A stretch of DNA of 18,952 nucleotides from Adineta ricciae (taxonomy: Eukaryota): contig CAJNOJ010000333.1 in the NCBI GenBank assembly GCA_905250025.1, positions 27,220-46,171 on the forward strand, given 5' to 3'. Shown one piece after another: positions 1 to 17,297 of the stretch (the stretch's first letter is position 1; the number at the start of each line of letters is the position of its first letter). The notes under the pieces were generated by a model, which saw nothing but the letters and a program-made list of their open reading frames with translations, was not told the origin of the DNA and ran no database searches. A program made the position numbers and the translations under genes.

Positions 1-3000
1 GTATAACACGAATCCGTGAAATATTACATAATCAATTAGGATCAAAATTATTATTACGTGTAAAGAAATAAGATTTTAAAACAAAAAGAAGGGAAAAAAA
101 AATGAATTTCTAAAATTTTTAGTCATTATTTAATCATCGTATTGATACACAAATACTTGATGAAAATGTATGTCAATTAATTGAATCAATTTGGTTAGAA
201 TCAATTGGTGATTTGAATAAAATTTTAAGTATAAAACCTGAATTATTTAATCTTAAAACGGTATTTACAAAAATATTTCTATAAATTTATGATTTAAAAT
301 TATTAAATAGATTATTGAAGCTGAAGCGGCATTACTTGAACTCAAATTAACTAATAATCCTGATGTTGCAGATCGTTTTTATTCATTAATACCACATCGA
401 TCACAATATCATATTGATCTTATTAAAAATCGTCGAATATTAATTGAAAAACTCGACTTGTGTCAAGTAAAATGATTTTTTTGAAAAATTTCTTTTCTTT
501 TTTTTATTTCTCTTCTCTTATTGAGATGCTTCGAGATATGTTAACAGTTAATGAACTAACTAATTGGAATGTAAAAGCATCAATTGAAGCAAAATATCGA
601 TCATTAAAATGTCATATTGAAACAATGTCAAATTCAACATCTGAATTTCAGAATATTTTTAATTTTATTCAATCATCTACAAATAGGTGAACAAATTCTA
701 CATAAACAATTTTATGATTATTTATTATTATTATAGGAATGAACAAATTATTATTCATAATATATTCAATGTTGTTAAACAAACAGATACTCTCAATTTT
801 TCTACAACATTATCCAATCAACAACAACTTTTTCATGGATCGAAATATTCAAATTTTCTTGGAATTCTTTCACGGTAAAGTATTTATTTAATTTTTAGAA
901 AAGATTTTTATACAACAAATTATATATATTTAGAGGTTTAGCAATGCCAAAAATGGTAATTGAAGAATTCGGTATTGATCGTACTGATATTGGTTGTCTT
1001 GGACATGGTATTTACTTTTCTAATTCTGCTTCAACATCTTTAAAATATACAACAGAAAGTACAATACGATCAGGTCGTCGTTTATTATGTATTTGTCAAG
1101 TAGCACTTGGTGAATCAGCTGATTATTATTCATTTTCACCAACACTTATCAAACCTCCTCATGGTTTTCATAGTACACATGGAATTAAACAAACTGAAGA
1201 TAATCATTCAATATTTAATGTAAGTTTCAATTAAACAATAAAAATTCAATTTAATAAGATTTTCTAAATATAATGATATAATTATATAGGATGATGAATA
1301 TGTTATTTATCAACTTGATCAACAACGTTTACTTTATATTGTAGAAGTTTCATGGATATTAAAAAATGAATTGAATATTGAATTAGAACGATTATCAATT
1401 ATTCATGATAAAGAAAATTTATTTAAAAAAAATGAAATTCCTACAATATTAATTGATGATGATAAAATCATTGAAATAGCTGAACAAGATTATGGTTTAA
1501 TATGTCCATCAACAGGAAAACTTATTCCACTTAAATCATTTCATATTCGTGCTCAAATTATCGATACTACAGTTGAAGTAATTTTATCGATTTTTCTATT
1601 CAATTAATTTATCATATTTATATTTTATTTTAAAAAAAAACAAAGGTTGTTCTTTATCAAGTTTATCAAAATACAAGTTCAATTCCAATTGAAGCTAAAT
1701 ATGTATTTCCTCTTGATGAAAATTCAATTGTTTGTGGTTTTGAAGCACATATTAATAATCAAATTATCAAAGGTATTGTTAAAGAAAAAGAACAAGCTAA
1801 ACAAGAATATAAACAAGCAATTGAAAAAGGTTATGGTGCTTATTTAATGCATCAAGAAGAAGCACAAGTATTTAGTGTTGCTGTTGGAAATTTACCAGCT
1901 CATAATGAAGTTATTATCAAAATAACTTATGTTGCAGAATTAGAAATTGAAAATAATGATATTATTTTTCGTTTTCCAGCTAAAATGGCTTTATGGCAAT
2001 CGAAAAAAGCGATTGAAAGCAAAGATCAATCAATTTTACAATCAATTAGTATTATCGATGAAAAAATTCAATTTAGTTTGAAAGTATCAATTCGAATGCC
2101 ATATAAAATATTAAAATTATTTTCACCAACACATCGTCTTCGTCGAAAATTAACTGATTGTATTGCTATGATTGAACTTGTTGATAAAATTTTATTTGAT
2201 CAAGATTTTATTCTTTCAATAACACTTAATAATCCTAATTTACCTCGAATATCAAATGAAATATCAAATAATGAGGATTCTCAAGTATCTATGCTTACTT
2301 TTTATCCACAATTTCAAACATTAATCAATTCAAACGAACAAATTGAAATTATTTTCATTGTTGATGTATCAAATTCAATGGATAACAGTCAGATACAACA
2401 AGCTAAACAATTAATTCATTTGTTTCTTATGAATTTGAAAGTTGATGATGAAAAAACATATTTTAATATCATTTTTTTTGGATCAGGTAAGAAAATACAA
2501 TTCTATAATGTTATTTTATTATCGAATAATTATCAATATTCATTTAGATAATGATGAATGTTTTCCTATATCAATGTTAACAACGAAAGAAAATCTGGAT
2601 AAAGCCAAATATTTTGTTCTAGTAACGATAATTTATCATTTTAATTGAATTTTTTATGTATTGAAATTTTAGCATTCACCTGTTTATCGTGGTAGTACAA
2701 ATCTATTTGCTGTTTTTCATCGTTATTCATTATTACCATCAACATTATCATCAAATTTTGGTCGTCAATTTATTTTATTATCTGATGGACATATTCATGA
2801 TCTTAATTCAATTCTTATTTTATTTAAACATCAATCAACTATGCAACATGATCGTTTATTTACATGTTCAATTGGTAATATTGCAAATAAACATAATTTA
2901 AAACAATTAACAAATGAAGCAAATGGAGGTGGTTTATTAACAATATTTGATTCAAATTATCGATCAAAATGGAAAATAAAAGTATTAAATATTCTTGATA

Positions 3001-3830
3001 AGATACAACAACCATGTATTACAAATATATCAATTGATTGGAATGGTTCTTTGAATAAAGAACAAAAGTTTCATATACAAGCACCAAAAATGATTCGTTC
3101 TTTATTTAATGGAATGCGACTTACTGTTTATCGATTCATAGAAAATTGTCATAAGGCAACATTAACAGCTATTATAAATGGACAAGAATTTGTTACAACT
3201 GTATTTAATAGTCCAATAACAAATACCAAAGGAAATATTTTACATTGTTTAACAACACGAGCGATCATTAATGATTATGACAATGGTCTATGGAATGTAG
3301 ATGAAAGTGAAAATGAATTGATTAAAATTCAATATAAACGAGATCTTATTGATCTTAGTATTAAACATTGTGTTATTAGTCCATATACAAGTTTTGTTGC
3401 CATCGAAGAACGTAATATTGAAATCAATCAAAATCATTTATCTTCTATTAGAAATGTTCGTTTACTTGATATTATGTTTGAACGAGATAATGATTTATTA
3501 CCATATATGAGTTGGGATGGTGATATATCAAATTTAACTTTAATCAAACAAAAATTAATCGATGCACGTATTTTACTTCAATGTGCATCGTTTCAGAGCA
3601 AAAAGGAAACAATTGTTGATATTGAAAAACTTTGTCAAAAAATTTCCTATCGAACAGGTGGAGATGAAAAATTCAATACAATGATGACTATCATACGTAC
3701 ATATCGTTATTCATTGAGTGAATATGATCAAGCAGATGAAATTGAAGAAAAAATGCGACATGGTATGTCATTCGATTTATTAATAATATTTATTTATTTA
3801 ATCGAAAAAATGAATAGATATAATCATTGA
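1..3830 (+). CDS. PARP4 / vault poly(ADP-ribose) polymerase-like protein (PARP regulatory + catalytic + VIT + vWA domains). Multi-exon; 5' end outside the window.
   Basis: Hand-spliced model: join(<1..59,123..260,311..466,526..686,737..874,934..1219,1290..1577,1646..2486,2548..2621,2673..3830). All introns are 50-70 bp GT-AG, and phases are consistent with the ORF-track frames. Peptides read from the sequence: regulatory helical domain '...RFYSLIPH...'; catalytic domain 'QQLFHGSKYSNFLGILSRGLAMPK...GIYFSNSASTSLKYT...DDEYVIYQLDQQRLLYIVEV' (the H/Y/E catalytic triad positions are present); VIT domain 'LIPLKSFHIRAQIIDTTVE|VVLYQVYQNTSSIPIEAKYVFPLDENSIVCGFEAHINNQIIKGIVKEKEQAKQEYKQAIEKGYGAYL...VGNLPAHNEVIIKITYV'; vWA domain with MIDAS 'IIFIVDVSNSMDNS', 'GSTNLFAV' and 'FILLSDGHI'. 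Alternative 3' end: a canonical ATG|GTATGT donor at 3769/3770 could splice to 3849..3917 instead of reading through to the stop at 3828..3830. Confidence 0.85.
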
Positions 3831-4082
3831 AATGATTAATGCAACAGCAGAAGAACGACAAATATTGGAAGAACAATGTTTCGCGAATAATTTTATAATC
3901 TCAAACGATCAATTGTAAATCAAAGACAAATCTTTTTCAAAAAAACAAATCAGAATTCGTTTATCTTGTAGTAAATCATTGGCTGAACATAATTCCACAG
4001 ACTTTTCAATTGCAAATAATACTAAAATAAGTGTACGTGAATGAAACTATAAGACGAATTCTTCTATATATAAATACTCTAG

Positions 4083-4593
4083 GCTGATCAATTGACTGAA
4101 GAACAAATAGCTGAATTTAAAGAAGCATTTTTTCTATTTGATAAACATGGTGATGGTACAATTACAACAAAACAATTAGGTACTGTAATGCGTAGTCTTG
4201 GTCATAATCCAACTGAAATTGAATTACAAAATATGATTGATGAAGTTGCTGCTGATGGTAAGATTTTAATCAATCAAATTTCATTTGATTCATTGTTTTT
4301 TTTTGTATTGTTAGGTAATGGTACAATTGATTTTCCTGAATTTTTAACAATGATGGTACGGAAAATGAAAGATACTGATTCAGAAGAAGAAATTCGCGAA
4401 GCATTCAATGTTTTTGATAAGAATGGTAATGGAATTATATCAATTGACGAATTTCGGTAATGAAAGAAAGATAAACATGCAAATTTATTTATTCTGTTTC
4501 TTCTTTTTTAAAGTCATGTTATGACAAATTTGGGTGAAAAACTTACCGATGAAGAACTTGATGAAATAGTTCGTGAAGCAGATGTTAATGGAG
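4083..4593 (+). CDS. Calmodulin-like EF-hand domain (exons 2-4 of the CaM-Hsp70SBD gene). Classic metazoan CaM gene structure, with the Met codon on a separate upstream exon.
   Basis: Exons 4083..4257, 4315..4456 and 4514..4593, with 57-bp introns (GTAAGA..TTAG, GTAATG..AAAG). Translation: [58 protein letters not shown]|[48 protein letters not shown]|[27 protein letters not shown]. Long stretches are identical to animal calmodulin. EF-hand loop positions are substituted: EF1 position 3 D->H, EF2 position 1 D->A, EF3 position 3 D->N, and EF4 is degenerate. Candidate Met-only exon 1: an ATG at 3767..3769 immediately followed by GTATGT. This is uncertain because it lies inside the PARP4-like last exon. 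Confidence 0.88.
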
Positions 4594-6405
4594 GTATACA
4601 TTTTTTTTTGTAACCAAAACCTACTGAAATTAATGTTAATACATGTTATGTTATGATTTGAGGTGTCGATTTGACAGTTTTATTTGGTTCGTCTAATCAT
4701 GCAGCTGATAAATCTGTATCGACTTCTGATAAGTCAAAATCATACGAACGATCTGAGAACATAGAAATATCTCCAAACATCTTATCATTTGATGCGGATA
4801 AAAGAGAAGAAAATCTGCAAGTTTCTGCAAATGAATCGAAAAATTCACTTTCAGCCAGTTCAGTATGTAAATTCTGCATGGAACTTTTTTAAATAAAAAT
4901 ATGATTGACTTTTAGATACAACATTATAAAGATGATATAATAACATTAACATGTAAAAATGTTGAATCAAAATTCAATATTTGTGATCTATTACTTCTCG
5001 ATGTTTGTCCACTTAGTCTTGGTATTGAAGATATTTATGGTAATATGCATATACTTATTCATCGTAATACAACGATTCCAGTACAAACACAATTTTATCA
5101 AATATTTACAAATGCTTATGCTTATCAAACATCAGTTAATATTCGTATATTTGAAGGTGAACATAAACTTACAAAATATAATGTATGTAATATTAAAACT
5201 TAAGAAACTTTTTGAATACAATTGTCTCTATTATAGATGTTTTTGGATGAATTTAGTCTTTTTGGTTTAACAAATAATTTTTTTGATCAAATACTTAAAA
5301 TAGGTGTTCGTATGAATATTGATGTCAATGGAATACTTCATGTTGATGTTGAAGAAACTTGTTCAGGAGCAAAAGCATTATTTATTCTTTCTTCTGATAA
5401 ACCAAGTTCGATAATTATTTTATATGTTCATAATGTTATCATTGAATATTATTTATATTTATATAGGAATGAGCAAAGAAGATATTGAAAAACATATTAC
5501 ATTTGTAGAAAGTTGTACAAATTTTATAGTTGATGATGATGATAAATCCAATGATTCATTATATCCGGTTTGTATTAGTTTATTTATATTTAATATAAAG
5601 TTTAACATTTCACTTTGTTTTTATCTTTTCTCAGCTCGATGGTCAAATTACAAATATACCACATAATTTTTCTGACAAATTGGATCCTTCATTTGGTAAT
5701 TTATTTTTATTTGCTATTTTATTGTAATGATATATGAATTTAGATCAAAAAGTTAAAATAACATTTCTTCGAAAAATGAAAGATATTCAATCTACAACAA
5801 GAATCATTGAAGAATTGCTAAAACTTCAATCTGAAGTAGAAATTTCCTTAAATATATAACTTATTTTCTATTTTATTCGAATATATAGGATGGAACATTT
5901 ATATTGAATCCAAATTTAGCTAATGTGTTTCATATTGATCCTAATAATTTAAATCATATTGAAATCTATTTATATAAACAAGGTTTTAATTTACTTGGTA
6001 AGATTCAAATGATTTATTTCATAAATATAAATTTTTATATTATTTTAAGCTTTAAATATTCAAAATGAAATTTATCGTTTAATTGGTACGGGTATCATTC
6101 TTCTTTGGTTTATACTTCAATTACCATCTCTACATCAGTATACAAACCAATTTTTATCTAACATTGACGAAATTAAAGTAAATTGAATTCTTTTTCGATC
6201 TTTTGTTTTTCTTTAAATCTTTAAGATTGATCTTTGCAACTTTTTTCCTGATAATATAATTGAACATATTAACAAAGCGATTGAATTCTATCGACAAACA
6301 AGTCAATGTAATGATATTTATTGTAAACAATTGGGATTGGATGATTCATCATGGAATATGTTTATTCAACGTATATTTATCGGACTTAACAATATTAATC
6401 ACTAA
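4083..6405 (+). CDS. Chimeric gene model: calmodulin-like N-terminus, acidic Ser/Lys-rich linker, Hsp70 substrate-binding domain (beta-sandwich + helical lid), and a C-terminal extension with one hydrophobic helix. No Hsp70 nucleotide-binding domain.
   Basis: Proposed join(4083..4257,4315..4456,4514..4593,4663..4862,4916..5182,5237..5405,5467..5567,5635..5695,5744..5835,5889..5997,6050..6177,6226..6405). The critical junctions stay in frame. CaM exon 4 (phase 1) joins the linker exon 4663..4862 ([67 protein letters not shown]). That exon has a canonical donor TCA|GTATGT at 4863 and a TTTTAG acceptor at 4915, and joins the Hsp70 SBD exon in phase 0. Weak points: the donor GTAGAA at 5836 (alternative stop at 5857..5859) and the choice of acceptor at 4663 versus 4678. 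Confidence 0.55.
4916..5567 (+). CDS. Hsp70-family substrate-binding domain (SBD-beta) exons
   Basis: Exons 4916..5182, 5237..5405 and 5467..5567. Translation: [89 protein letters not shown]|[56 protein letters not shown]|[34 protein letters not shown]. This matches the Hsp70 interdomain linker plus SBD signature (canonical ...[84 protein letters not shown]...ITITNDKGRLSKEEIE). It is divergent but unmistakable. Confidence 0.85.
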
Positions 6406-6847
6406 CCGATCATTATAATTGATTTCATTTCTTTTTAAGTTTGAATTACATTAAGAGTAACTCTCATATTTCTCGTTTTTAGATCAAAGGTTTAAATGTG
6501 AGTGTAAGGTGAAGATTAAGTCATCAATGTGTTATCTAAAAACGTTTTTACTCAGTAAGTTCTGTCCATAAAACCTATTCTATTTGATAGAAAATTAAAT
6601 TCTAAAACGAATGGACTAGATTTTATAGACTAGATAGGAACTCTTTAGTAAAATAGTTTTAATCTAAAATATCGTTTCATCAGATTAACTTCACACTGAT
6701 AACGAAAGCTTATGACGTAGATGTTCGTCACCAACAAGAGAATCTACTCACTTTTTCTGACATTTTGTCAACATACCTTTATAATTTTGATACGAAGAAT
6801 GAGACAAATAGTGGTCTTCATCATTTTTCTTATATCTTTCTTAAAAA

Positions 6848-7618
6848 ATGAAACAAATCTTTATGATATTTTTAATTATCATCTTGAATATAAAGAAGAA
6901 TGAATTGAAATGTCTTCAAGCTTGGAATGGAAGTGGAACAGGTGCATGGTATCGTGTAGATACTATTTGTAATTCTTCATTTATCTCAACAGAACTCATT
7001 AATTGTTTACCAACAATTATTTTACCTTTAAATTTAACGGAATTTACTGATGGATTCTATATTAGTTTAGGAGTTTTCAATCGTTTTAATGGAGTTTCGC
7101 TAGATATTGGTTTAACATTTGATTTGGAGAAAAATCGTTGGTTTTCTTACGGAAATGATCGATTAGGATGGAAATCCGGAAGTATTTCAATTGATTCCAA
7201 TGAAAATCGTTGTATTAATGTTTCTTTAAGTATTTTTAATGATTATATTCATTATATTATTCGAAACTCTAATGGTTCAATTATCTTAGGTGAAGATAAA
7301 TTTTATTCATTTCAAATTGATCCTCTATTAAATTTAACAAAAAATAATTCTGATTCATTTGGATTTTATCGTTTTGATAGTATTGCTCAAAGTAAAGAAA
7401 CATTGAAAAGTGGTTCTCAACTTATTCATGCGCAAATGTTCAATTGGACGGTTAAGTTTTCTTCAGGAGAAATTCTTCCAGCTAATGAATATAATATTGC
7501 TAAAAATATTAGTGGTTATTCACCAGGTATATGTTGTTCTAATCAAGAAATAAAAACAATTGAAATTCATCAACAAATCAAATGGAATCAATCGGATATA
7601 TCAATTCGTTATATTTAA
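6848..7618 (+). CDS. Secreted, heavily N-glycosylated protein of unknown family (single exon, 256 aa)
   Basis: ATG at 6848 and an uninterrupted 771-nt ORF. N-terminus MKQIFMIFLIIILNI is signal-peptide-like. There are about 13 N-x-S/T sequons and several Cys. I recognise no conserved domain. It is convergent with the Kelch gene, with 106 bp between the stops. Confidence 0.5.
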   Translation: MKQIFMIFLIIILNIKKNELKCLQAWNGSGTGAWYRVDTICNSSFISTELINCLPTIILPLNLTEFTDGFYISLGVFNRFNGVSLDIGLTFDLEKNRWFSYGNDRLGWKSGSISIDSNENRCINVSLSIFNDYIHYIIRNSNGSIILGEDKFYSFQIDPLLNLTKNNSDSFGFYRFDSIAQSKETLKSGSQLIHAQMFNWTVKFSSGEILPANEYNIAKNISGYSPGICCSNQEIKTIEIHQQIKWNQSDISIRYI

Positions 7619-7724
7619 TAATCAAAATACTTCAAATTTCTAAATTTTATGAAATGATTTTATTTTCAATATTTTGAATTCAATGAAAAAAATTACAATA
7701 TTTAGATTTTCGAATAAAATGTTG

Positions 7725-9392
7725 TCAATATAATTCATTTGTATTCAGAGAAACATTTCCATTTGATCCACTTGCAACTAATATAGTACCATCAAATAAA
7801 AGTGATGCGGTATGAGAATGTCGTATAGTACTCATATTCGATAGTATTGTCCAATTATTTGTTGATGGATCGTATAATTCAGCACTATTGAGATAAACAT
7901 TATTTTGACTTTGTCCACCTGTTACTAAAATTGTTCCATCCAATAAAACAGTCGCTGTATGAAAGTATCGCGCAGTTGTCATACTCGATGTTGTTATCCA
8001 ACTATTTGTTGAAGGATTATATAATTCAGCACTGTTCAGAGAATTACTGTTACCATAACCACCAATAACTAACACTTTTCCATTTTGTAGAAGAGATGCG
8101 GTATGAGAATATCGTGCAACAGTCATATTCGCCATTGTTGTCCAATTTCCTGTAGATGGATTATATAATTCAACACTATACAGAGGTGCATTATTATTAT
8201 ATCCACCTGCAACTAAGACTGTTCCGTTAAGTAAAACTGATGCAGTATGTCTAAATCTTGCAGAATTCATATTTCCTGTAGTTGACCAAGTGTTTATCGA
8301 TGGATCATACAATTCAGCACTGTTGACATAACCACTATTAGCAGAACCACCTGCAACTAATACTTTTCCGTTTTGTAAGAGTGATGCTGTGTGGTAGTAT
8401 CGTGTGATACTCATATTTCTCGTTGTTGTCCAATTACCTGTAGATAGATTGAATAATTCTACGCTATTCAGAGAAGCAACACTATTTTGTCCACCTGTTA
8501 TTAGTACTATCCCAGTTAATAAGAGTGATGAAGTGTGGTAACATCGAGTAGTTTTCATATTCCCTGTTATTGACCATATATTAGTAGATGGATCATACAG
8601 TTCAGCACTGTTAAGAAAAGCGTTATCATTCTGTCCACCAACAACTAATACTGATCCATTCGATAAAACTGATGCAGTATGTTTATTTCGGGCAATATTC
8701 AAGTTTTTCATCGTTGTCCATCCTAAAGAGTCAAAAAGTAAAAATCAGGTAAATTTACTCAATTAAAACTGTCAAATGTTGAAAGATAAATCGAAGTATT
8801 TCAATTACTAGACGATATTTTTCATTTATAAGAGAAGAGAGTTCATTATGCATTGATAAATATATAACATCAACATAATTACTATTTATCTTTTTCGTGA
8901 GGATTTTTCAAAATAGAAGAACGACAAGTAGTGAAATAATTATTTTAATTTTGCCTTACCTTTCAGTGATGCAGTTGTTGTGGATGTTGATTCTATAATT
9001 TGAGAGAATATCATAAAGAAAAACGAAGATTATTTTGCTTTTTCAAAATCTCGTTAAAATTCATTAAACTTACCATGTGTTGAGATTATTGTTACAATAA
9101 TCGATGTTCGATTAAGAAATACCATTGTAACATTCGAATAAGATTCAATTGTCAATGAATTATTATTTAAATTGAACAATTGGCACGTTTCATTTGAATT
9201 AAAATAATTCATAAGAGATATTGAATTGTTATTTAAATTAATCATTTGACAAATACATTCATCAAATGTTTTATTGAAAAAGATCTGATTTTCAGTACCA
9301 ATATATGTGTAGTCATATACTATTCCAATAGCAATCGTATGAATTGTAGGTATATAGAGTAGAATCAGGTTTAAAAAAATCACGTCTGTCAT
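7725..9392 (-). CDS. Secreted Kelch-repeat protein (7-blade beta-propeller) with an N-terminal signal peptide and a Cys/N-glycan-rich region
   Basis: Model: join(complement 9074..9392, complement 7725..8722). Exon 1 (MTDVIFLNLILLYIPTIHTIAIGIV...IISTHG) ends at a CATG|GTAAGT donor in phase 1. The acceptor TTTAG at 8723 then gives G-WTTMKNLNIARNKHTASVLSNGSVLVVGGQ... Seven tandem ~48-aa Kelch units follow (consensus AELYDPSTN.W..T.NM...R..HTASLL.NG.VLV.GG). An optional in-frame 33-nt micro-exon (complement 8960..8992, ESTSTTTASLK) is flanked by AG and GTAAGG and is also phase 1 to phase 1. Confidence 0.78.
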
Positions 9393-10160
9393 TCTACGAG
9401 TGTTTCTGGAGGAAATTTCAACTGATTTATATAGGAGGTTTTTTTCTATGCAACAGTTTCATCTAATTATTTTCCATTTAGAAGAGAAAAAGAGAGACAA
9501 AAGAAAACAAGGACCTCAGCATCTTTTGTTGAGTTATTGTCAAACAAAAATGCTATGAAACTATATTGTTATACATGAAATACAATTATCTTTATCTACC
9601 ATCATTGATTAACGAATGTTTGTTTATAGAATTTTTCCAAACGCGTTACACAACCTCGATATTCATAATTTTTCATGCAATTGAGTGCATATAATTAATA
9701 CGATGCAAACCTTTCCTTGATGAGAGTGCAAATGTTGGAAAAAAAGAAGAAAAAAATGTTGATATCAATAAGAATATAATTTATCAAAAAGAAGTAATTA
9801 TGATATCTTGTTCGATTTGAGAACTCATTTTGTTCTAAAAGATTTTTGTTAGTACCAAAAGAAAAATATTTGTTTAGTTTTTTTTCTCCATTGTAATAAT
9901 CAAAGTGCATGTTATAAAATGAAAGATAAAGAAGAAAATAATGCATTATCAGAACAATTGATAAGAAAAAAATGAGAAACTTTACTTATTTTACCTCATC
10001 ATTTTGAAAATAGAAGATCAGAAATGAAAACACATTCATCTTCAATAAATAGTTTGAATAAAAACGGAATTCCAGTAAATTAATAAGAGAAATTTTCTCT
10101 TAAACTGAACTTTTTCTCTTTTTTCTTTAAAAGATAAGTGTTATACCATCAGGATCACCT
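9393..10160. promoter_or_regulatory. Divergent (bidirectional) intergenic region between the Kelch gene (minus, ATG at 9392) and the permease gene (plus, ATG at 10161)
   Basis: 768 bp with no convincing ORF; A/T-rich and homopolymer-rich. Function is inferred from gene orientation only. Confidence 0.3.
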
Positions 10161-12101
10161 ATGAATGTCAATGATGAAACATCTGTTAATGATGTTCAAT
10201 TCAATCAAAATTTCTCTCAGGTAATAATCTTTTATTTTATTTTCATTATGACAAATGAGTTTTCATTTAGAGAAGATTTCTTAAAAAATTAATTCCAAAT
10301 TTTTTGCGAAAAAATTCTTCATCTGAAGATGTTGATAATCCATATGCAAATGAATATGCTGATACTGAAGTTTTAGTTCATGGAGAAAAAGTTGATTTAC
10401 ATCGAAATTTACAAGAACGACATATGATCATGATTGCATTAGGTGGAACGATTGGAACGGGATTATTTTTAGCATCTGGACAAGCTTTAGCATCGGCTGG
10501 ACCTGGTGGCTCTTTAGTATCTTATTTAATCATTTCTGTTATGGTTTATTTCGTTATGACGAGTTTAGGTAAAATTATTTGATTTCTTCAATGAAAAAGA
10601 CTTTTATGTTTTTTTTTAAAGCTGAATTAGCAACACAATATCCGATAAGTGGTTCATTTAATACATTTGGAAGTCGATTTGTTGATGAAGCTTTTGGATT
10701 TGCATTAGCATACAATTATTATTTTTCTTGGGTAACAACGATCGCAGGTGAATTAGTTGCTGCTGGTCTCATTGTTCAATATTGGTTGCCACATTTTCCT
10801 TCAATTATTTGGTCAATCCTGGGAATGTTAGTTATGTTTTTATTAAATGCATTTACAGTCAAAGGTTATGGTGAAGCTGAATATTGGTTTGCAATGATTA
10901 AGGTCATAACTGTACTCATATTTCTACTTGTTGGTGTTCTTGTTGATTCGGGTGCTATTGGAAAACCAAGAGAAACAATTGGTTTTAAGAATTGGAAAAT
11001 TGAAGGTGCACCTTTTGTTGGAGGAGTTGCTGGTGTTATTACAACATCAATTATATCTGGTTTTGCTTTTCAAGTACGAAGAATTTCGGTTTTTTTTCTC
11101 AAATATAATCTTCTATCGAATATATATAGGGAACAGAAGCAGTTGGAATTGCAGCTGGTGAAAGCTCCAATCCGAAAAAAGATGTTCCACGTGCAATGAA
11201 TGGAACAATTTGGCGTATTATTTTATTTTTTGTTGGTGCTATTTTTATTATGGGTTTAATTATTCCATATAATGATAAAAAATTAAGTCAAATTAATGGT
11301 GTTGACAGTATCGCTGTTTCCCCATTTACATTAGTATTTAGTCTATCGGGTATTCCAGGAGCTGATCATATTATGAATGTTGTTATTTTAACAACAATCT
11401 TATCAGCTGGTAATTCAGGTCTTTATTTATGTACAAGAATATTTTGGACTTTAGCAAATGAAGGCAAAGCACCGAAAATCTTTCGTCGTTTAACAAAAGG
11501 TGGAATACCAATTTATTGTTTAATTTTAACAACCGTTTTAGCAACTTCTTTATTTGGTTTATCATTTGTTGGAAATCAAGTTATTTACATTTGGTTAGTT
11601 AATATGACGAGTGTTATGGGTTTCATTGCTTGGTTTGGAATCGCTATTGCACATTGGAGATTTCGTCGAGCATTTCTCGCACAAGGTTATTCATTGAATG
11701 ATTTGGTTTATAAAGCGTTATTCTTTCCTGTTGGACCATTTTTGGCATCGCTACTTATTTTACTTTGTGTTTTTGGACAAGGTTATTCAGCATTTACACA
11801 AAAAACTTTTAATTGTACTCAGTTACATGAAGAAGAAACTTATCTTTTTGAATTCAATAATCAATATTTAATCGATAGCGGAAATTCAACAACGTGTACA
11901 AAAACAGTCTTTAATGTTCAAACATTTTTATCTGGTTATGTGATCTTACCAATCCTTGTTATTATGTTTTTCGTTTATAAATATGTTAAGAAAACGAAAT
12001 TTATTCCACTTAAAGATATTGATTTGCTTACTGATAGTGTTATGGAACGTGACCGTTTGAAACGAGAAAGAATACAACAATTACAACAAACAGACGCTTA
12101 A
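10161..12101 (+). CDS. Amino-acid permease of the APC superfamily, AAT/YAT family (LysP / Can1 / Gap1-like), about 593 aa, four exons
   Basis: Model: join(10161..10220,10271..10568,10622..11073,11130..12101), with introns of 50, 53 and 56 bp. Translation: MNVNDETSVNDVQFNQNFSQ|RRFLKKLIPNFLRKNSSSEDVDNPYANEYADTEVLVHGEKVDLHRNLQERHMIMIALGGTIGTGLFLASGQALASAGPGGSLVSYLIISVMVYFVMTSL(A)ELATQYPISGSFNTFGSRFVDEAFGFALAYNYYFSWVTTIAGELVAAG...GYGEAEYWFAMIKVITVLIFLLVGV...GFAFQ|GTEAVGIAAGESSNPKKDVPRAMNGTIWRIILFFVGAIF...MNVVILTTILSAGNSGLYLCTRIFWTLANEGKAPKIF..LTKGGIPIY...FIAWFGIAIAHWRFRRAF... These are all hallmark AAT/YAT motifs. A C-terminal loop insertion carries N-glycosylation sequons and Cys. AATAAA signals lie at 12136 and 12147. 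Confidence 0.85.
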
Positions 12102-12594: not shown

Positions 12595-14153
12595 TTATGA
12601 ATTACTAGTAGATGATTCTATTGTATGTTTCATGTGTATGTCATTATTCTTTTGTATTTGCTCAATAGTATATGGTTTGTCTGGAATAATGACACTATCA
12701 GATGGAATTAGCCTATATATATATCAAAAGTAGATATTGTATGAATATATAAAAATTAATTTTTACCTCGTTATATTACCGGAATATTCTCCCCAACAAA
12801 ATTCAATTAAAGGATTAAATCCTTCCCATTTATTATTATTTAGTACAGTTGGCTCATATGAATACATTGCATATATATTACACATTTCATCATCATGTCT
12901 TTGTCTAATTTTCCCAAATAAAATCTATTCTTTTGTATATAAAATTATTCGATCTTACCCGATGTTAATAATTCTATCATCATTGTTATCATAAACACAT
13001 TGACCAATAATAAAATCATTCTTTTCAATTTGTATAGATGATGAAAGTGGATAAAATGATTGAGGCCATTGTGGATTACTTTTACCAATCTGTAAAATAG
13101 TTTTATTTCGTACTCGATATATTGAAGATACCCTTCCTATGACAATAAATAGTTTCAATGATCTTCCATAAATATATACAAAAAAATCGAACCCCATTGA
13201 TGTGTATGATAGTGAAGAGCAAATATGGATATTGTAGGTCCAAGATAACGACATGAAAAGGGTGTTCGAATATCTAGAGAATTCAATTTGAGTAGGATAA
13301 AAGATACGTAAAAACCTTGTTCGAGTACCTTGTGTTCTTGGTGGTAAAGTGATATTCGATGTACCAGCTAAAAACATTCCTGCATGATACTTTCGCCTAT
13401 AAGATAAAAATGAAATCTTATCTAGAAAAAGGTGGTAACGGTATTTGAAATTATTTATTACATCTTTCGAGTAAAAAGAATTTGGATACCAGAATTATCA
13501 TTGGTAATAATTGGTAAATAATGAATATTCATTACAAGATATTTATATGATGTATTATGACCAACAACAAAACCAGTATCTTAATAGAATAACATTATGA
13601 TTTTTCTTTCTTATCTAGTGAAAAACACCTTTAGGTAATGCTAATGAAGATCCATTTCTTGACCAATCATAAATAATCATTTGTTTATTTCTGCATGCTG
13701 TTCCATCAAACCTATAAAAATAATTTTACTGTTTAATTTTTAAAGTCAAATTATTAAATAATACCAAATAGATTCATTAGATGTGGGAGTAACGCAAGCC
13801 AATGTGAGTATATGATGAGCTGTATTCATATTAACCAATGGTTTAAAATCAACTTCAGTTTTTGAAAGTAAATCATTTTCTCGATAAGTAAAATTTCAAA
13901 CTTACTAATCATCAATTTTTCATCAGGTAATTTATATTGGATATATACTTGTTGATCTCCCTAAAGATGTCAAGAATTATTTTTATAATCGTCGTTTTAT
14001 AATCATATTTACTTCTTTTGTTGTCACATTCTTCATAGTAAAATTAAAAGTGAAATTATCTTCATTATCATAAATATCTTGCGAATGAATGGATTTGATG
14101 TTAATAAGAAGAAAAATCAAAATATTTTGAATGACTAATATTTCTATATTCAT
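12595..14153 (-). CDS. Peptidylglycine alpha-hydroxylating monooxygenase / dopamine beta-hydroxylase-like protein (copper type II ascorbate-dependent monooxygenase fold). Secreted. The CuM His pair is absent.
   Basis: Model on the minus strand: exons 14013..14153 (MNIEILVIQNILIFLLINIKSIHSQ..., signal peptide), 13906..13960, 13765..13852, 13629..13711, 13462..13579, 12959..13396, 12780..12904, and a terminal exon at 12595..12680 (alternative acceptor 12694). Introns are 49-65 bp except the last, which is ~99 bp. All are GT-AG with consistent phases. Alignable with PHM: 'QVYIQYKLPDEKLMIIDFKPLVNMNTAHHILTLACVTPTSNESIW|FDGTACRNKQMIIYDWSRNGSSLALPK|DTGFVVGHNTSYKYLVMNIHYLP...|MRKYHAGMFLAG...SIYRVRNKTILQIGKSNPQWPQSFYP...GQCVYDNN...|GQRHDDEMCNIYAMY...'. 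The 26-nt intron alternative at exon 2/3 was rejected in favour of a 53-bp intron that restores the IDFKP alignment. The last exon is low confidence. Confidence 0.78.
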
Positions 14154-14357: not shown

Positions 14358-14788
14358 TCACGCTGGTGTTTTTGCTTGACAGCAACAATAAAAGTTTGTA
14401 TTAGAAGTGCAAATACCCTTATTACTGAGATTTATTGTGGAAGGTGTCATCATTCCTCGACGACGACGGCTACTCGCGAAACTGGTTCCGGAAAAAGACG
14501 TACGACAAGAGCCGTCGTTGCTAACAGGAACAGGGTTGATGACAGTGTCAAAACCACCTTTAGTACAATAGGTGTTACAATTAGTAGAACCAGTAGTGCC
14601 GTCAGATATAGTATAATCAACAGAACAAGTAGCACCTGTTGGCTTAGATGTTGTTGTGGTTGTAGTAGTAGTAGTGGTAGTAGTTGTTGTTGTCGTTGTG
14701 CTGGGAGTGGTAGTAGTAGTTGTCGTTGTCGTTGTGCTGGTAATGGTAGTAGTAGTTGTTATTGTTGTTGTCGTTAGTGGTATGATGA
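14358..14788 (-). CDS. Terminal exon of a mucin-like protein: Thr-rich (ACN)n tract followed by a short Cys-containing C-terminal module
   Basis: Minus-strand translation: VIIPLTTTTITTTTTITSTTTTTTTTTPSTTTTTTTTTTTTTTTSKPTGATCSVDYTISDGTTGSTNCNTYCTKGGFDTVINPVPVSNDGSCRTSFSGTSFASSRRRRGMMTPSTINLSNKGICTSNTNFYCCCQAKTPA*. Stop at 14358..14360; acceptor TATACAG at 14789. A candidate upstream 42-nt Thr-rich exon lies at complement 15133..15174 (acceptor TTTTAG, donor GTGAGT). Confidence 0.5.
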
Positions 14789-15325
14789 CTGTATAAAAAT
14801 GTAATTAGTCTCATTTAATCTTAAGTCGACTAATTCGGGTATTAAACCTTGTCGAAATCCTAAGAGAGTGTAGGTGTATGCGATATTTATGATTTCTCAC
14901 TTATGAATGTTTTTTATTTTGATATATATTTATATTTATGTCTAGCTCATATCAGTTATTCTCAACAATTTTGAAAGAAAATCAATAATATTTTGGAGAC
15001 GGGATGTGATTCATATTTTTCATGAAGTGCATTTCTCAATCCGCGATACCTGTCGTATCATTCAGCGAATTAGTCTGCGACATACACATACAAACCTCTT
15101 CTAACTACATATATCTTAGATAGGACACTCACCTTTTGTTGTAGATATTGTTTGCATCGTTGTAGTTGTTGACACTAAAATAACTGTAAAAAAAAACGAA
15201 GAAGGAATATTGCACACGGTTATAAACTTAGTCGTGAAAAAATCTATTCACAAAGATCTAACATATATATAAATGTCATGAGAAAATAATTGAACGCGAT
15301 CAATAAAAATAGGATGACATCTTTT

Positions 15326-16066: not shown

Positions 16067-16687
16067 TAAGCAACATAAAAAAGCCAGTGGCGTTCGTTTC
16101 CTGTAAAAAAAATGAAAATATTTTCTTATAGAAGATATTGCATATTCTATTATTGATCAAGACATAAATCTGACTATAGTATGTTTCTTATTGGCAACCA
16201 ACACAAAACTGTAGTAGTCACTCGAAAAATGTGAATGTAAAATAACACTCCTACCGTAACTTAATTGCTGTGCCATTATTCGTATCCATTTCAAGAGTTG
16301 TCAGATGACACGTACAGATAGTTAAAAATGCAATTATTTATCAAAACGATAAAGAAAATCTAAAAAAGATAAATTTCATTTAAGCTGGATAACAAAGAAG
16401 TGACGCCCATTCGTTGACTCTTTTTTGAAAGAGTTAGAAAAATAGTAGATAAAAATCCTCACTTTAATCTCAATCTAATCGGCTACGAACTGAAGTCTCT
16501 TTTATGCACATTCCTCCATTTTACCTCCTTCTACTTTATTCATGTCAAATTACCTCCAATTCGTTTGCCCAAATATGTCAGCAAAATAAATACTGTTTCG
16601 AAACATTTATTCATCGACTTTCTTTCGACTAGTTAAAATAAAAAATTAATTTACTTCCACTTATTTTATCTCTTCTAAGTGACCATA

Positions 16688-17004
16688 TGATGCGTTATAG
16701 TGTTTACCAGGAAATTCTATCTGTTTTCGGTATCAACTGATTTCCCGGAAATTGAATTTCTTGATCAGACAAACCGAACAGTACAAATAGTTATAATGCT
16801 CATATAGGGCATCTGGAGGGCGAGGGTGTGAGGTGGGTGTCGGTAGGGATTTCTCTCAGTGAGGGTACCGGGTGGGTGTCTGTGCCCTATATGAGCATTA
16901 TAACTATTTGTACTGTTCGGTTTGTCTGATCAAGAAATTCAATTTCCGGGAAATTAGTTGGTACCGAAAACATAGAATTTCCTGGTAAACACTATAACGC
17001 ATCA
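16688..17004. repeat. Foldback element: two ~123-bp arms (16688..16811 and 16883..17004) that are reverse complements at about 97% identity, around a 71-bp G-rich loop. MITE-like, foldback-transposon-like or a hairpin-RNA locus.
   Basis: Direct reading: the left arm tgatgcgttatagtgtttaccaggaaattctatctgttttcggtatcaactgatttcccgg...gctcatatagggca equals the reverse complement of the right arm, except for a 2-bp indel and two substitutions. The loop is tctggagggcgagggtgtgaggtgggtgtcggtagggatttctctcagtgagggtaccgggtgggtgtctg. No clear target-site duplication. Confidence 0.8.
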
Positions 17005-17297
17005 AATCTTTCCGGCCGGCTATTCAAAGAATACTGTACCTCCCCTCCTCCCGCTACGGCAAAATGTATCCATATGGATATATCCGGCTGGGAAGGGTTA
17101 AATTACTAATATCATAATGTGAGATATACCAGATCTTTTTATGTAGGCTCCGTAAACTACTGCCGTTGTACATATCACATCCGGGAATTGTGTTCAAACA
17201 ATTACCTTTTACAACAGAATTTTTAAAAAACACAGAAAAATATCTCCTTTGAAACAAGAAAGGAAGAAGTGTAAGCTTGGTGAATAAGAAAAAAACT

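Follow-up and report, generated by a model that had tools for sequence, protein, structure and literature searches.

Calmodulin-derived and Hsp70 substrate-binding modules in the probable tail of a vault PARP (PARP4-like) gene of the bdelloid rotifer Adineta ricciae

At positions 4083-6405 of the 18,952-nt window of Adineta ricciae DNA analyzed here (the window being the whole stretch), calmodulin-derived exons and an Hsp70 substrate-binding domain (SBD) are joined in a single reading frame, which raises the question of whether they constitute a gene of their own or the end of a much larger one. A previous reading made from the sequence alone (hereafter the sequence-only reading) had favored the former and suggested, as possibilities, a peptide clamp or holdase regulated by the Ca2+/calmodulin module, or a decoy co-chaperone. 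Our analysis points instead to the latter: its subject is one long + strand PARP4-like (vault PARP) gene, and 4083-6405 is probably the 3' two-thirds of the tail of this single bdelloid gene, whose product would comprise PARP, VIT and VWA domains, a calmodulin module, an acidic disordered linker, the beta part of the SBD (SBD-beta) with helix A, and a domain resembling the MVP-interaction (MINT) domain of human PARP4. The PARP, VIT and VWA domains are encoded upstream of the calmodulin-SBD region and on the same strand.

Splice-site chaining on the sequence joins 12 exons at 4083-6405 into a 567-codon open reading frame (ORF; coordinates in Table 1), and all the introns across this interval are GT..AG and 48-69 nt long. 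The third of these exons (E3) ends at 4593 with GGAG/gtatac (the slash marks the splice site), the fourth (E4) is bounded by ttgag/GT and TCA/gtatgt, with a second in-frame acceptor possible at 4678, and the fifth opens at 4916 with ttttag/ATA; the junctions 4593/4663 and 4862/4916 are exactly those that the sequence-only reading had given. Further upstream, the joined exons from 2673 to 6405 are open throughout, with zero stops, and extension of the chain with the exons at 1290-1577, 1646-2486 and 2548-2621 yields a full model of 18 consecutive in-frame GT..AG exons spanning 1290-6405. This chain, together with six contig-edge residues, matches exactly the public protein CAF1574739.1 (1390 aa, 'unnamed protein product, partial [Adineta ricciae]'), which has the same boundaries at the two junctions just mentioned. 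The EF-hands and the C-terminal part of HSP70, which the sequence-only reading had wished to see on one polypeptide, are both found by Pfam on the 567-codon ORF and on CAF1574739.1; on the latter they accompany VIT and VWA, HSP70 being represented by profile positions 375-516 only, and the PARP catalytic match (PF00644) lies further 5' than the domains of this protein.

The public model resides on a second assembly. The single-exon ORF at 6848-7618 was located on NCBI contig CAJNOR010005744.1 of assembly GCA_905250095.1, a contig that corresponds to window positions 1271-10786 with two mismatches, so that the two independent assemblies are 99.98% concordant. The gene call on this contig covers window positions 1271-6405 and is annotated with the VIT, VWA and EF-hand families plus 8 more that are unlisted. 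One of the two mismatches falls at position 1289, which is G in the window and C in the contig, whereby the acceptor AG of intron 1220-1289 becomes AC near the contig edge; because this difference destroys the acceptor, the GenBank coding sequence starts with six intron-derived residues (NDIIIY). Public models of this kind were made with BRAKER, with RNA-seq from the species as hints (PMC7943196); GCA_905250095.1 does not appear in the main table of that paper. Matches in Logan were considered as transcript-derived contigs and rejected, since those inspected read through the introns and are therefore genomic.

Upstream of the tail, the translation displays the PARP motifs LFHGS, GIYFS and DDEYVIY, the Glu of the last being presumed catalytic, and Pfam recognizes VIT followed by VWA_3 on P0251, in the order by which PARP4 is identified. 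The product of the exon at 2673-3762 is 68-77% identical to Rotaria PARP4-like proteins. As regards a BRCT domain, the ORFs at 123-687 gave no Pfam match; the gene may begin 5' of the window, and its start probably lies near or 5' of the window's first position.

As to how the PARP-VIT-VWA part reaches the calmodulin exons, the sequence-only reading had let the PARP4-like gene end at 3830 and had treated 4083-6405 as a separate calmodulin-SBD unit, and neither view is supported. The gene ends neither at 3830 nor at the apparent stop TAA at 3915-3917, which sits within the donor TT/GTAAAT and is part of a conserved phase-2 donor: a paralogue locus (L002) has AA/GTATGT at the homologous codon, followed by a short intron and the mini-exon TGAATCATTCGTC, all of which the protein P0030 reads through, and the orthologous loci of R. 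sordida (L004) and Rotaria sp. Silwood-2 (L006) both have TT/GTAAGT, followed by tcttacag/TGAATCAATGGCT in the former and by tcttgcag/TAAATCATTGGCT in the latter. In the window, a 57-nt intron (3915-3971) leads to a mini-exon encoding F-KSLAEHNSTDFSIANNTKIS, whose phase-0 donor AGT/GTACGT meets the acceptor ctctag/GCT at 4083 across a 50-nt intron. The mini-exon, T(G/A)AATCA(T/A)T..., is homologous in all three of these loci, and the public Silwood-2 model P0234 reads ...KDD-FKSLAEYD... across the region. The PARP-VIT-VWA exons thus arrive at 4083 in frame by way of a conserved donor and mini-exon, a path that the GenBank model follows as well.

Other routes into the calmodulin exons were examined and discarded. 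A separate calmodulin start exon within 3918-4082 fails for want of any ATG/GT there; ATG/GTATGT at 3760-3765, considered as a shared donor, is out of frame with PARP4 and superfluous given the mini-exon path; spliced-leader trans-splicing at 4083, or a TATA-driven start within the first calmodulin-derived exon (E1), would provide no usable start codon, as an out-of-frame ATG precedes M36; and an alternative mini-exon acceptor at 3954 (+6 aa) gives a product that is not among the public proteins.

At the other end of the protein, the last ~130 residues are homologous to the human PARP4 MINT domain: a family profile of the C-terminal ~220 residues matches human PARP4 1575-1698 at E=1.4e-9 (PDB 9bw6/9bw7, vault-PARP4 cryo-EM), and the homologues from Rotaria and Adineta that a database search with the model returned carry, in precomputed annotation, HSP70 together with PF26156, 'PARP4 MVP-ID C-terminal domain'. 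In human PARP4, MINT is a helical MVP-docking domain that binds MVP repeats 3-5 inside the vault (PMC12280208). When the search was run without the calmodulin part, ~25 SBD+MINT clusters were retrieved, all of them bdelloid, after which scores fall to ordinary Hsp70s; among the 120 best matches, the SBD+MINT family is restricted to bdelloids. In two of its members, P0030 from Rotaria sp. Silwood-1 and P0046 from A. ricciae, a single ORF links the post-VWA region (...RTYRYxLxEY...ATxEERQxLxQxC...) to SBD+MINT by way of a long disordered linker. The SBD does not, accordingly, appear to be a locus-specific truncation of an Hsp70 gene; SBD plus MINT-like domain is a shared C-terminal module of bdelloid PARP4-like proteins. 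Of the sequence-only reading there remain a calmodulin paralogue, an acidic linker and an SBD in frame without an ATPase domain; what it had not recognized is that the C-terminal ~200 residues resemble a vault-docking domain, and with a MINT-like domain at the C-terminus the likely biology is therefore that of a vault-tethered PARP rather than of a free Ca2+-regulated holdase.

The SBD itself gives a Pfam HSP70 match (E=5e-25) confined to profile positions 376-517 of 599, and aligns with Hsc70 387-523 at E=6e-26, a span that comprises the DLLLLD interdomain linker, SBD-beta and lid helix A; identity to the SBDs of Hsc70 and BiP is ~40%. A tblastn search of the whole window on both strands (E<=10), with a full-length Hsc70 query, matched only 4976-5609 (Hsc70 387-553), and there is therefore no nucleotide-binding domain in the window, in keeping with the earlier statement that no Hsp70 ATPase domain lies upstream. 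Lid helices B-E and the EEVD motif are not present either, the alignment ending at Hsc70 residue 523 in helix A, beyond which come the spacer and MINT. The AlphaFold model of the R. magnacalcarata orthologue P0012, of which only the SBD and MINT are confident, shows SBD-beta as eight strands followed by helix A, as well as a helical domain at the C-terminus and a disordered linker; the SBD superimposes on solved Hsp70 SBDs with a target-normalised TM score of 0.72 and a root-mean-square deviation of 2.7 A. The Hsc70 cleft positions are kept (Ile before Glu in LGIE, Phe in FTN, Val and Ile in SVNI), and family-invariant residues include NG and the FTNAYAYQ loop, which has 2 extra residues relative to Hsp70. 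Judged by alignment and by the orthologue model, this is predicted to be an SBD-beta with a hydrophobic peptide cleft; since both the nucleotide-binding domain and lid helices B-E are missing, peptides, if bound, would be bound independently of ATP and exchanged fast.

The calmodulin origin of the first three exons of the ORF (E1-E3; Pfam EF-hand_7, E=8e-25) is best appreciated against the canonical Rotaria calmodulin gene of R. sordida (L003, 8001-8681), in which the ATG is contiguous with GCT GAT, the introns fall at ELG/TVM, DADG/NGT, ELR/HVM and DIDG/DGQ, and the terminal exon encodes DGQVNYEEFVTMMTSK followed by the stop. The window copy retains the last three of these introns at the same codons and in the same phases; it has no counterpart of the terminal exon, the place of which is occupied by the PARP4 linker exon; and the ancestral ATG has become TAG, doubling as a splice acceptor (TAG GCT GAT in the window, L004 and L006; TAG/GCTGATCAATTGAC in both L004 and L006). 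Without an ATG and without a terminal exon, the calmodulin exons cannot stand alone, and the first in-frame Met downstream of E3 falls within the SBD. The linker exon E4 shows weak collinearity with P0012 207-238 (BLASTP E=0.03) and nothing stronger; two further proposals, that E4 is a decayed EF4 or that it carries a 'TVLxxF' motif common to paralogue linkers, were dropped, as BLASTP gave them no support.

In the window copy, D22H and E31Q (EF1) and D56A (EF2) remove Ca2+ ligands, which weakens these two hands and leaves EF3; in the Rotaria fused copies nearly all ligand positions are canonical, and to judge by their residues these modules look Ca2+-competent. Four functional EF-hands in ~149 residues, with a start and a stop of their own, would characterize a calmodulin; none of these features is found here, and the module is a calmodulin-derived domain, not a calmodulin. 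Over the calmodulin exons, the ratio of nonsynonymous to synonymous divergence (dN/dS) between the window and the other copies is 0.15-0.21, and between the Rotaria fused copies and canonical calmodulin, from which they differ at 4-6 of 132 residues, it is 0.04-0.05 at a synonymous divergence (dS) of ~0.78. Comparison of the window with R. magnacalcarata gives dN/dS of 0.20 for the calmodulin part, 0.23 for the SBD and 0.43 for the C-terminus, at dS values that are similar across the modules (0.60, 0.89 and 0.69, respectively). On these estimates the calmodulin insertion is under purifying selection, and constraint of this strength on exons devoid of a start and stop of their own argues that they are translated inside a longer ORF. 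Synonymous divergence is smaller among the fused copies (dS 0.08-0.60) than between them and the canonical gene (0.62-0.79), which indicates a single ancestral insertion. The 57-nt intron within EF2 (4258-4314) is in frame and stop-free, so that its retention would place 19 extra residues in the EF2 loop; at the same intron the Silwood-2 model P0234 uses an upstream acceptor, which adds VVFAVLL.

The orthologous fusions that the sequence-only reading had proposed to look for in related genomes do exist, for the calmodulin insertion is common to the loci of four species: the window, R. sordida, Rotaria sp. Silwood-2 and R. magnacalcarata. The R. sordida locus presents the VWA end, calmodulin E1-E3, linker, SBD and MINT on one strand and is annotated as two genes. 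In Silwood-2 the public model P0234 connects the post-VWA region with the EF-hands via FKSLAEYD..., and a phase-0 donor, ACG/GTGCGT, can join a strongly conserved E1a. The R. magnacalcarata loci (L001 9950-14824 and L005 1792-7825) contain calmodulin E2-E3, linker, SBD and MINT only, E1 being absent; E3 and the linker are set apart by an insert of 1.5 kb, and the models P0012, P0224 and P0226, which come from different assemblies, join the exons differently and are mutually inconsistent. At L005 1792 there is ATGGCACAATTGACCACTT/GTATGT (MAQLTT), which is like the calmodulin 5' end minus the Asp codon; a reading of ATGGCACAATTGACC at this position as a retained calmodulin start is suggestive yet at odds with the TAG of the other three copies. 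In R. sordida, the last exon of canonical calmodulin lies at 8628-8678 of L003 and is omitted by the public model P0080, which runs canonical calmodulin on into a gene at 10152-10989, 1.5 kb further downstream; the product of this downstream gene aligns with the MINT-like domain (DGSF...EIYRLIS...W..YIQR), at 24% identity to the C-terminus encoded in the window. The adjacency of a calmodulin gene and a MINT-like gene may bear on the origin of the calmodulin-PARP4 fusion.

Several observations weigh against a single gene of the kind proposed. PARP, VIT and VWA were not found within 10 kb upstream of the R. magnacalcarata tail unit, which, lacking E1 besides, must therefore be independently expressed there or decaying; it is chiefly this locus that speaks for a tail able to exist without the PARP part. 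Retention of intron 3915-3971 would produce an immediate stop (TTG TAA), in which event the tail might require another start; TTGTAA is also found in the R. sordida and Silwood-2 orthologues, and since retention yields a stop at once, a conserved short PARP-VIT-VWA isoform is conceivable. Of the residues by which human PARP4 contacts MVP, S1614 aligns to L (family consensus S), K1618 to N and R1689 to Q, so that vault docking is argued only on grounds of homology. Two of the three remaining EF-hands of the window copy have lost Ca2+ ligands. Lastly, the exon junctions are predicted, from the sequence and from a BRAKER model made with RNA-seq hints. Alternatively, the region might be divided into two transcription units, a PARP-VIT-VWA gene ending at the TAA directly after ...NDQL and a calmodulin-linker-SBD-MINT gene with its own promoter downstream. 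The TATA-like TATATATAAATA at 4066-4077, the solitary tail of R. magnacalcarata and the annotation of the R. sordida locus as two genes would all agree with such a division, which we nonetheless deem unlikely: the TAA belongs to a donor conserved in a paralogue that has no stop, it is separated from E1 by 165 nt only, no in-frame ATG occurs at or 5' of E1 (3918-4082), three species have TAG in place of the ancestral ATG, with a pyrimidine tract before it as at an acceptor, no in-frame Met precedes M36, which itself comes after an out-of-frame ATG, and the in-frame mini-exon path is both conserved and used in CAF1574739.1.

The calmodulin exons might, on the other hand, be a non-coding relic or a skipped cassette, the mini-exon being spliced directly to 4663 from a phase-1 donor, A/GTGTAC, at 4030/4031. 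While this junction is also in frame, and while lost Ca2+ ligands in the window copy and a truncated EF4 in all copies are what a relic might display, dN/dS of 0.04-0.21, together with intact splice sites and exons free of stops and frameshifts across four species whose dS reaches 0.6, renders the idea very doubtful, and the near-canonical Rotaria copies, at their high dS, require translation in this frame. The short contigs and the disagreement among public models of the orthologous loci could raise the suspicion that the tail in its entirety is a pseudogene fragment in decay, or a chimera of assembly or annotation; this is extremely improbable in view of the concordance of two independent assemblies, the 18 consecutive in-frame GT..AG exons, the purifying selection on all three modules and the many family-invariant residues. 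A single PARP4-like gene that includes the calmodulin-derived exons is thus the explanation we retain as the probable one.

Table 1. Exons of the PARP4-like gene and neighboring genes in the window.
Feature	Position	Strand	Support
Exon segment, PARP catalytic core (...GHGIYFSNSAS...)	899-1219	+	Pfam PF00644 E=7e-11 on 899-1231; donor AAT/GTAAGT 1219/1220
Exon, PARP catalytic domain end (DDEYVIY)	1290-1577	+	exact agreement with CAF1574739.1
Exon, VIT and beginning of VWA	1646-2486	+	Pfam VIT E=3e-31, VWA E=2e-6; VIT E=1e-36 on P0251
Short VWA exon DNDECFPISMLTTKENLDKAKYFVL	2548-2621	+	exact agreement with CAF1574739.1
Exon, VWA remainder and conserved post-VWA region, 3' end ...EEKMRH, donor G/GTATGT	2673-3762	+	VWA_3 E=5e-13 on P0251
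Exon DIIIEMINATAEERQILEEQCFANNFIISNDQ, phase-2 donor TT/GTAAAT containing apparent stop TAA 3915-3917	3818-3914	+	donor shared with L002, L004, L006
Mini-exon (F)KSLAEHNSTDFSIANNTKIS, phase-0 donor AGT/GTACGT	3972-4032	+	homologous mini-exons; exact agreement with CAF1574739.1
Calmodulin-derived E1, residues A1-G59 (EF1 and beginning of EF2), acceptor ctctag/	4083-4257	+	comparison with canonical Rotaria calmodulin gene
Calmodulin-derived E2 (EF2 remainder, central helix, EF3)	4315-4456	+	intron positions and phases as in canonical gene; 83-85% identity to Rotaria copies
Calmodulin-derived E3, phase-1 end at ancestral last calmodulin intron, EF4 halved	4514-4593	+	canonical gene GGAG/gtata at same codon
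Acidic Ser/Asp/Lys-rich linker exon (E4), without Met	4663-4862	+	weak collinearity with P0012 linker; disorder predicted in orthologue
Exon, Hsp70 interdomain linker DLLLLD and first half of SBD-beta (FTNAYAYQ signature)	4916-5182	+	Pfam HSP70; Hsc70 387-523 alignment
Exon, second half of SBD-beta	5237-5405	+	Pfam HSP70; Hsc70 alignment; orthologue structure model
Exon, lid helix A, then acidic spacer	5467-5567	+	Hsc70 alignment stops at residue 523
Two spacer exons (5635-5695, 5744-5835) leading to first MINT helix	5635-5835	+	exact agreement with CAF1574739.1
Three MINT-like domain exons (5889-5997, 6050-6177, 6226-6405; stop TAA 6403-6405)	5889-6405	+	profile match to human PARP4; PF26156 on homologues
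256-aa ORF, hydrophobic N-terminus, no Pfam match	6848-7618	+	ORF and Pfam
Single-exon Kelch protein, six repeats	7725-8711	-	neighboring gene
Amino-acid permease, at least two exons	about 10271-12098	+	neighboring gene
Copper type II monooxygenase C-terminal fragment	12958-13494	-	neighboring gene

The window is AT-rich, with a GC content of 23-36%, mostly <30%, which is low against the 35.5% of the A. ricciae reference assembly (PMC7943196); the closest homologues of the gene come from Rotaria, at up to 77% identity. Beyond the neighboring genes, GC increases to 0.32-0.36 where a long low-complexity ORF rich in Thr, with stretches of T and TTTI, is found (14361-14804, - strand). A nested near-perfect palindrome (16685-17007), with inner arms of 90 nt (16722-16811 / 16883-16972, 98% complementary) and outer arms of 41 nt (93%), occupies the more GC-rich right-hand part of the window and looks like a foldback or a miniature inverted-repeat transposable element (MITE-like).

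Judged by its domain content (PARP, VIT, VWA, MINT), the encoded protein is a member of the PARP4 family and is neither a calmodulin nor an Hsp70. With human PARP4 it has in common the PARP, VIT and VWA domains, a long disordered linker and the homologous helical C-terminal MINT; human PARP4, however, has no calmodulin-like or Hsp70-like domain (PMC12280208), the MVP salt-bridge residues are not conserved here, a BRCT domain was not seen in the window, and bdelloids possess many PARP4-like paralogues as opposed to the one human gene. P0030 and P0046, named 'PARP4 MVP-ID C-terminal domain-containing protein' in UniProt, resemble it in the post-VWA region, the phase-2 donor, the mini-exon, the disordered linker and SBD+MINT (42-61% identity over the last two), but have no calmodulin module in the linker. 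Relative to canonical Rotaria calmodulin, with which it shares three intron positions and phases and 85% nucleotide as well as 85% amino-acid identity over residues 1-132, the window module lacks the start codon and the terminal exon, has a truncated EF4 and is embedded in a protein of >1390 residues. Hsp70 and Hsc70, for their part, have the same DLLLLD, eight-stranded SBD-beta and lid helix A, and differ in having the nucleotide-binding domain, lid helices B-E and EEVD. There is precedent for PARP4-like scaffolds gaining binding domains, in that clade-5 PARPs of amoebae, lancelet and sea urchin bear appended 14-3-3, actin and ubiquitin-related domains (PMC4245714), and likewise for MINT bringing modules fused to it into vaults, as with engineered MINT/INT-tagged cargo (PMC12280208); the appended domains differ from those described here. 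In the literature searched we found no description of calmodulin or an Hsp70 SBD inside PARP4, rotifers included; the protein CAF1574739.1 is already public and belongs, as a variant with calmodulin and Hsp70-SBD modules, to a known family.

Taken as a whole, the domain composition suggests that the protein is most likely a vault-tethered PARP with two added client-binding modules. To our knowledge, PARP4 is the only enzymatic vault component. The MINT-like domain would dock the protein inside the vault shell, as human PARP4 does; the lidless SBD would act as an ATP-independent, fast-exchange peptide clamp, and the three-EF-hand calmodulin remnant as a second binding module for helical targets, so that the two together might deliver clients to the PARP domain tethered in the vault or retain them in the lumen. 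Bdelloids are noted for their extreme tolerance of desiccation and radiation. A speculative and rather improbable extension would have the tether of a bdelloid vault PARP include the lidless clamp and, in this orthologue group, a calmodulin-derived sensor. Vaults induced by stress would then take in unfolded proteins or targets of calmodulin, and either ADP-ribosylate or shelter them during recovery from desiccation and radiation, as a naturally occurring 'holdase in a cage' that is independent of ATP and possibly gated by Ca2+. Adineta vaga has stress-induced MVP and PARP genes (PMC10809525).

These findings suggest that bdelloids have expanded PARP4 and set an Hsp70 SBD beside a vault-docking domain, and that one old group of orthologues keeps a calmodulin module under selection. 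The latter offers a clean case of exon shuffling: a host gene took up three calmodulin exons, joined to it by way of the introns they had inherited, with the start codon turning into an acceptor and the terminal exon being exchanged for an exon of the host; in practical terms, split or mis-joined public models of the orthologous loci could be corrected. The arrangement would tie vaults to ADP-ribosylation, client capture and, possibly, Ca2+ signalling in a concrete way that lends itself to testing.

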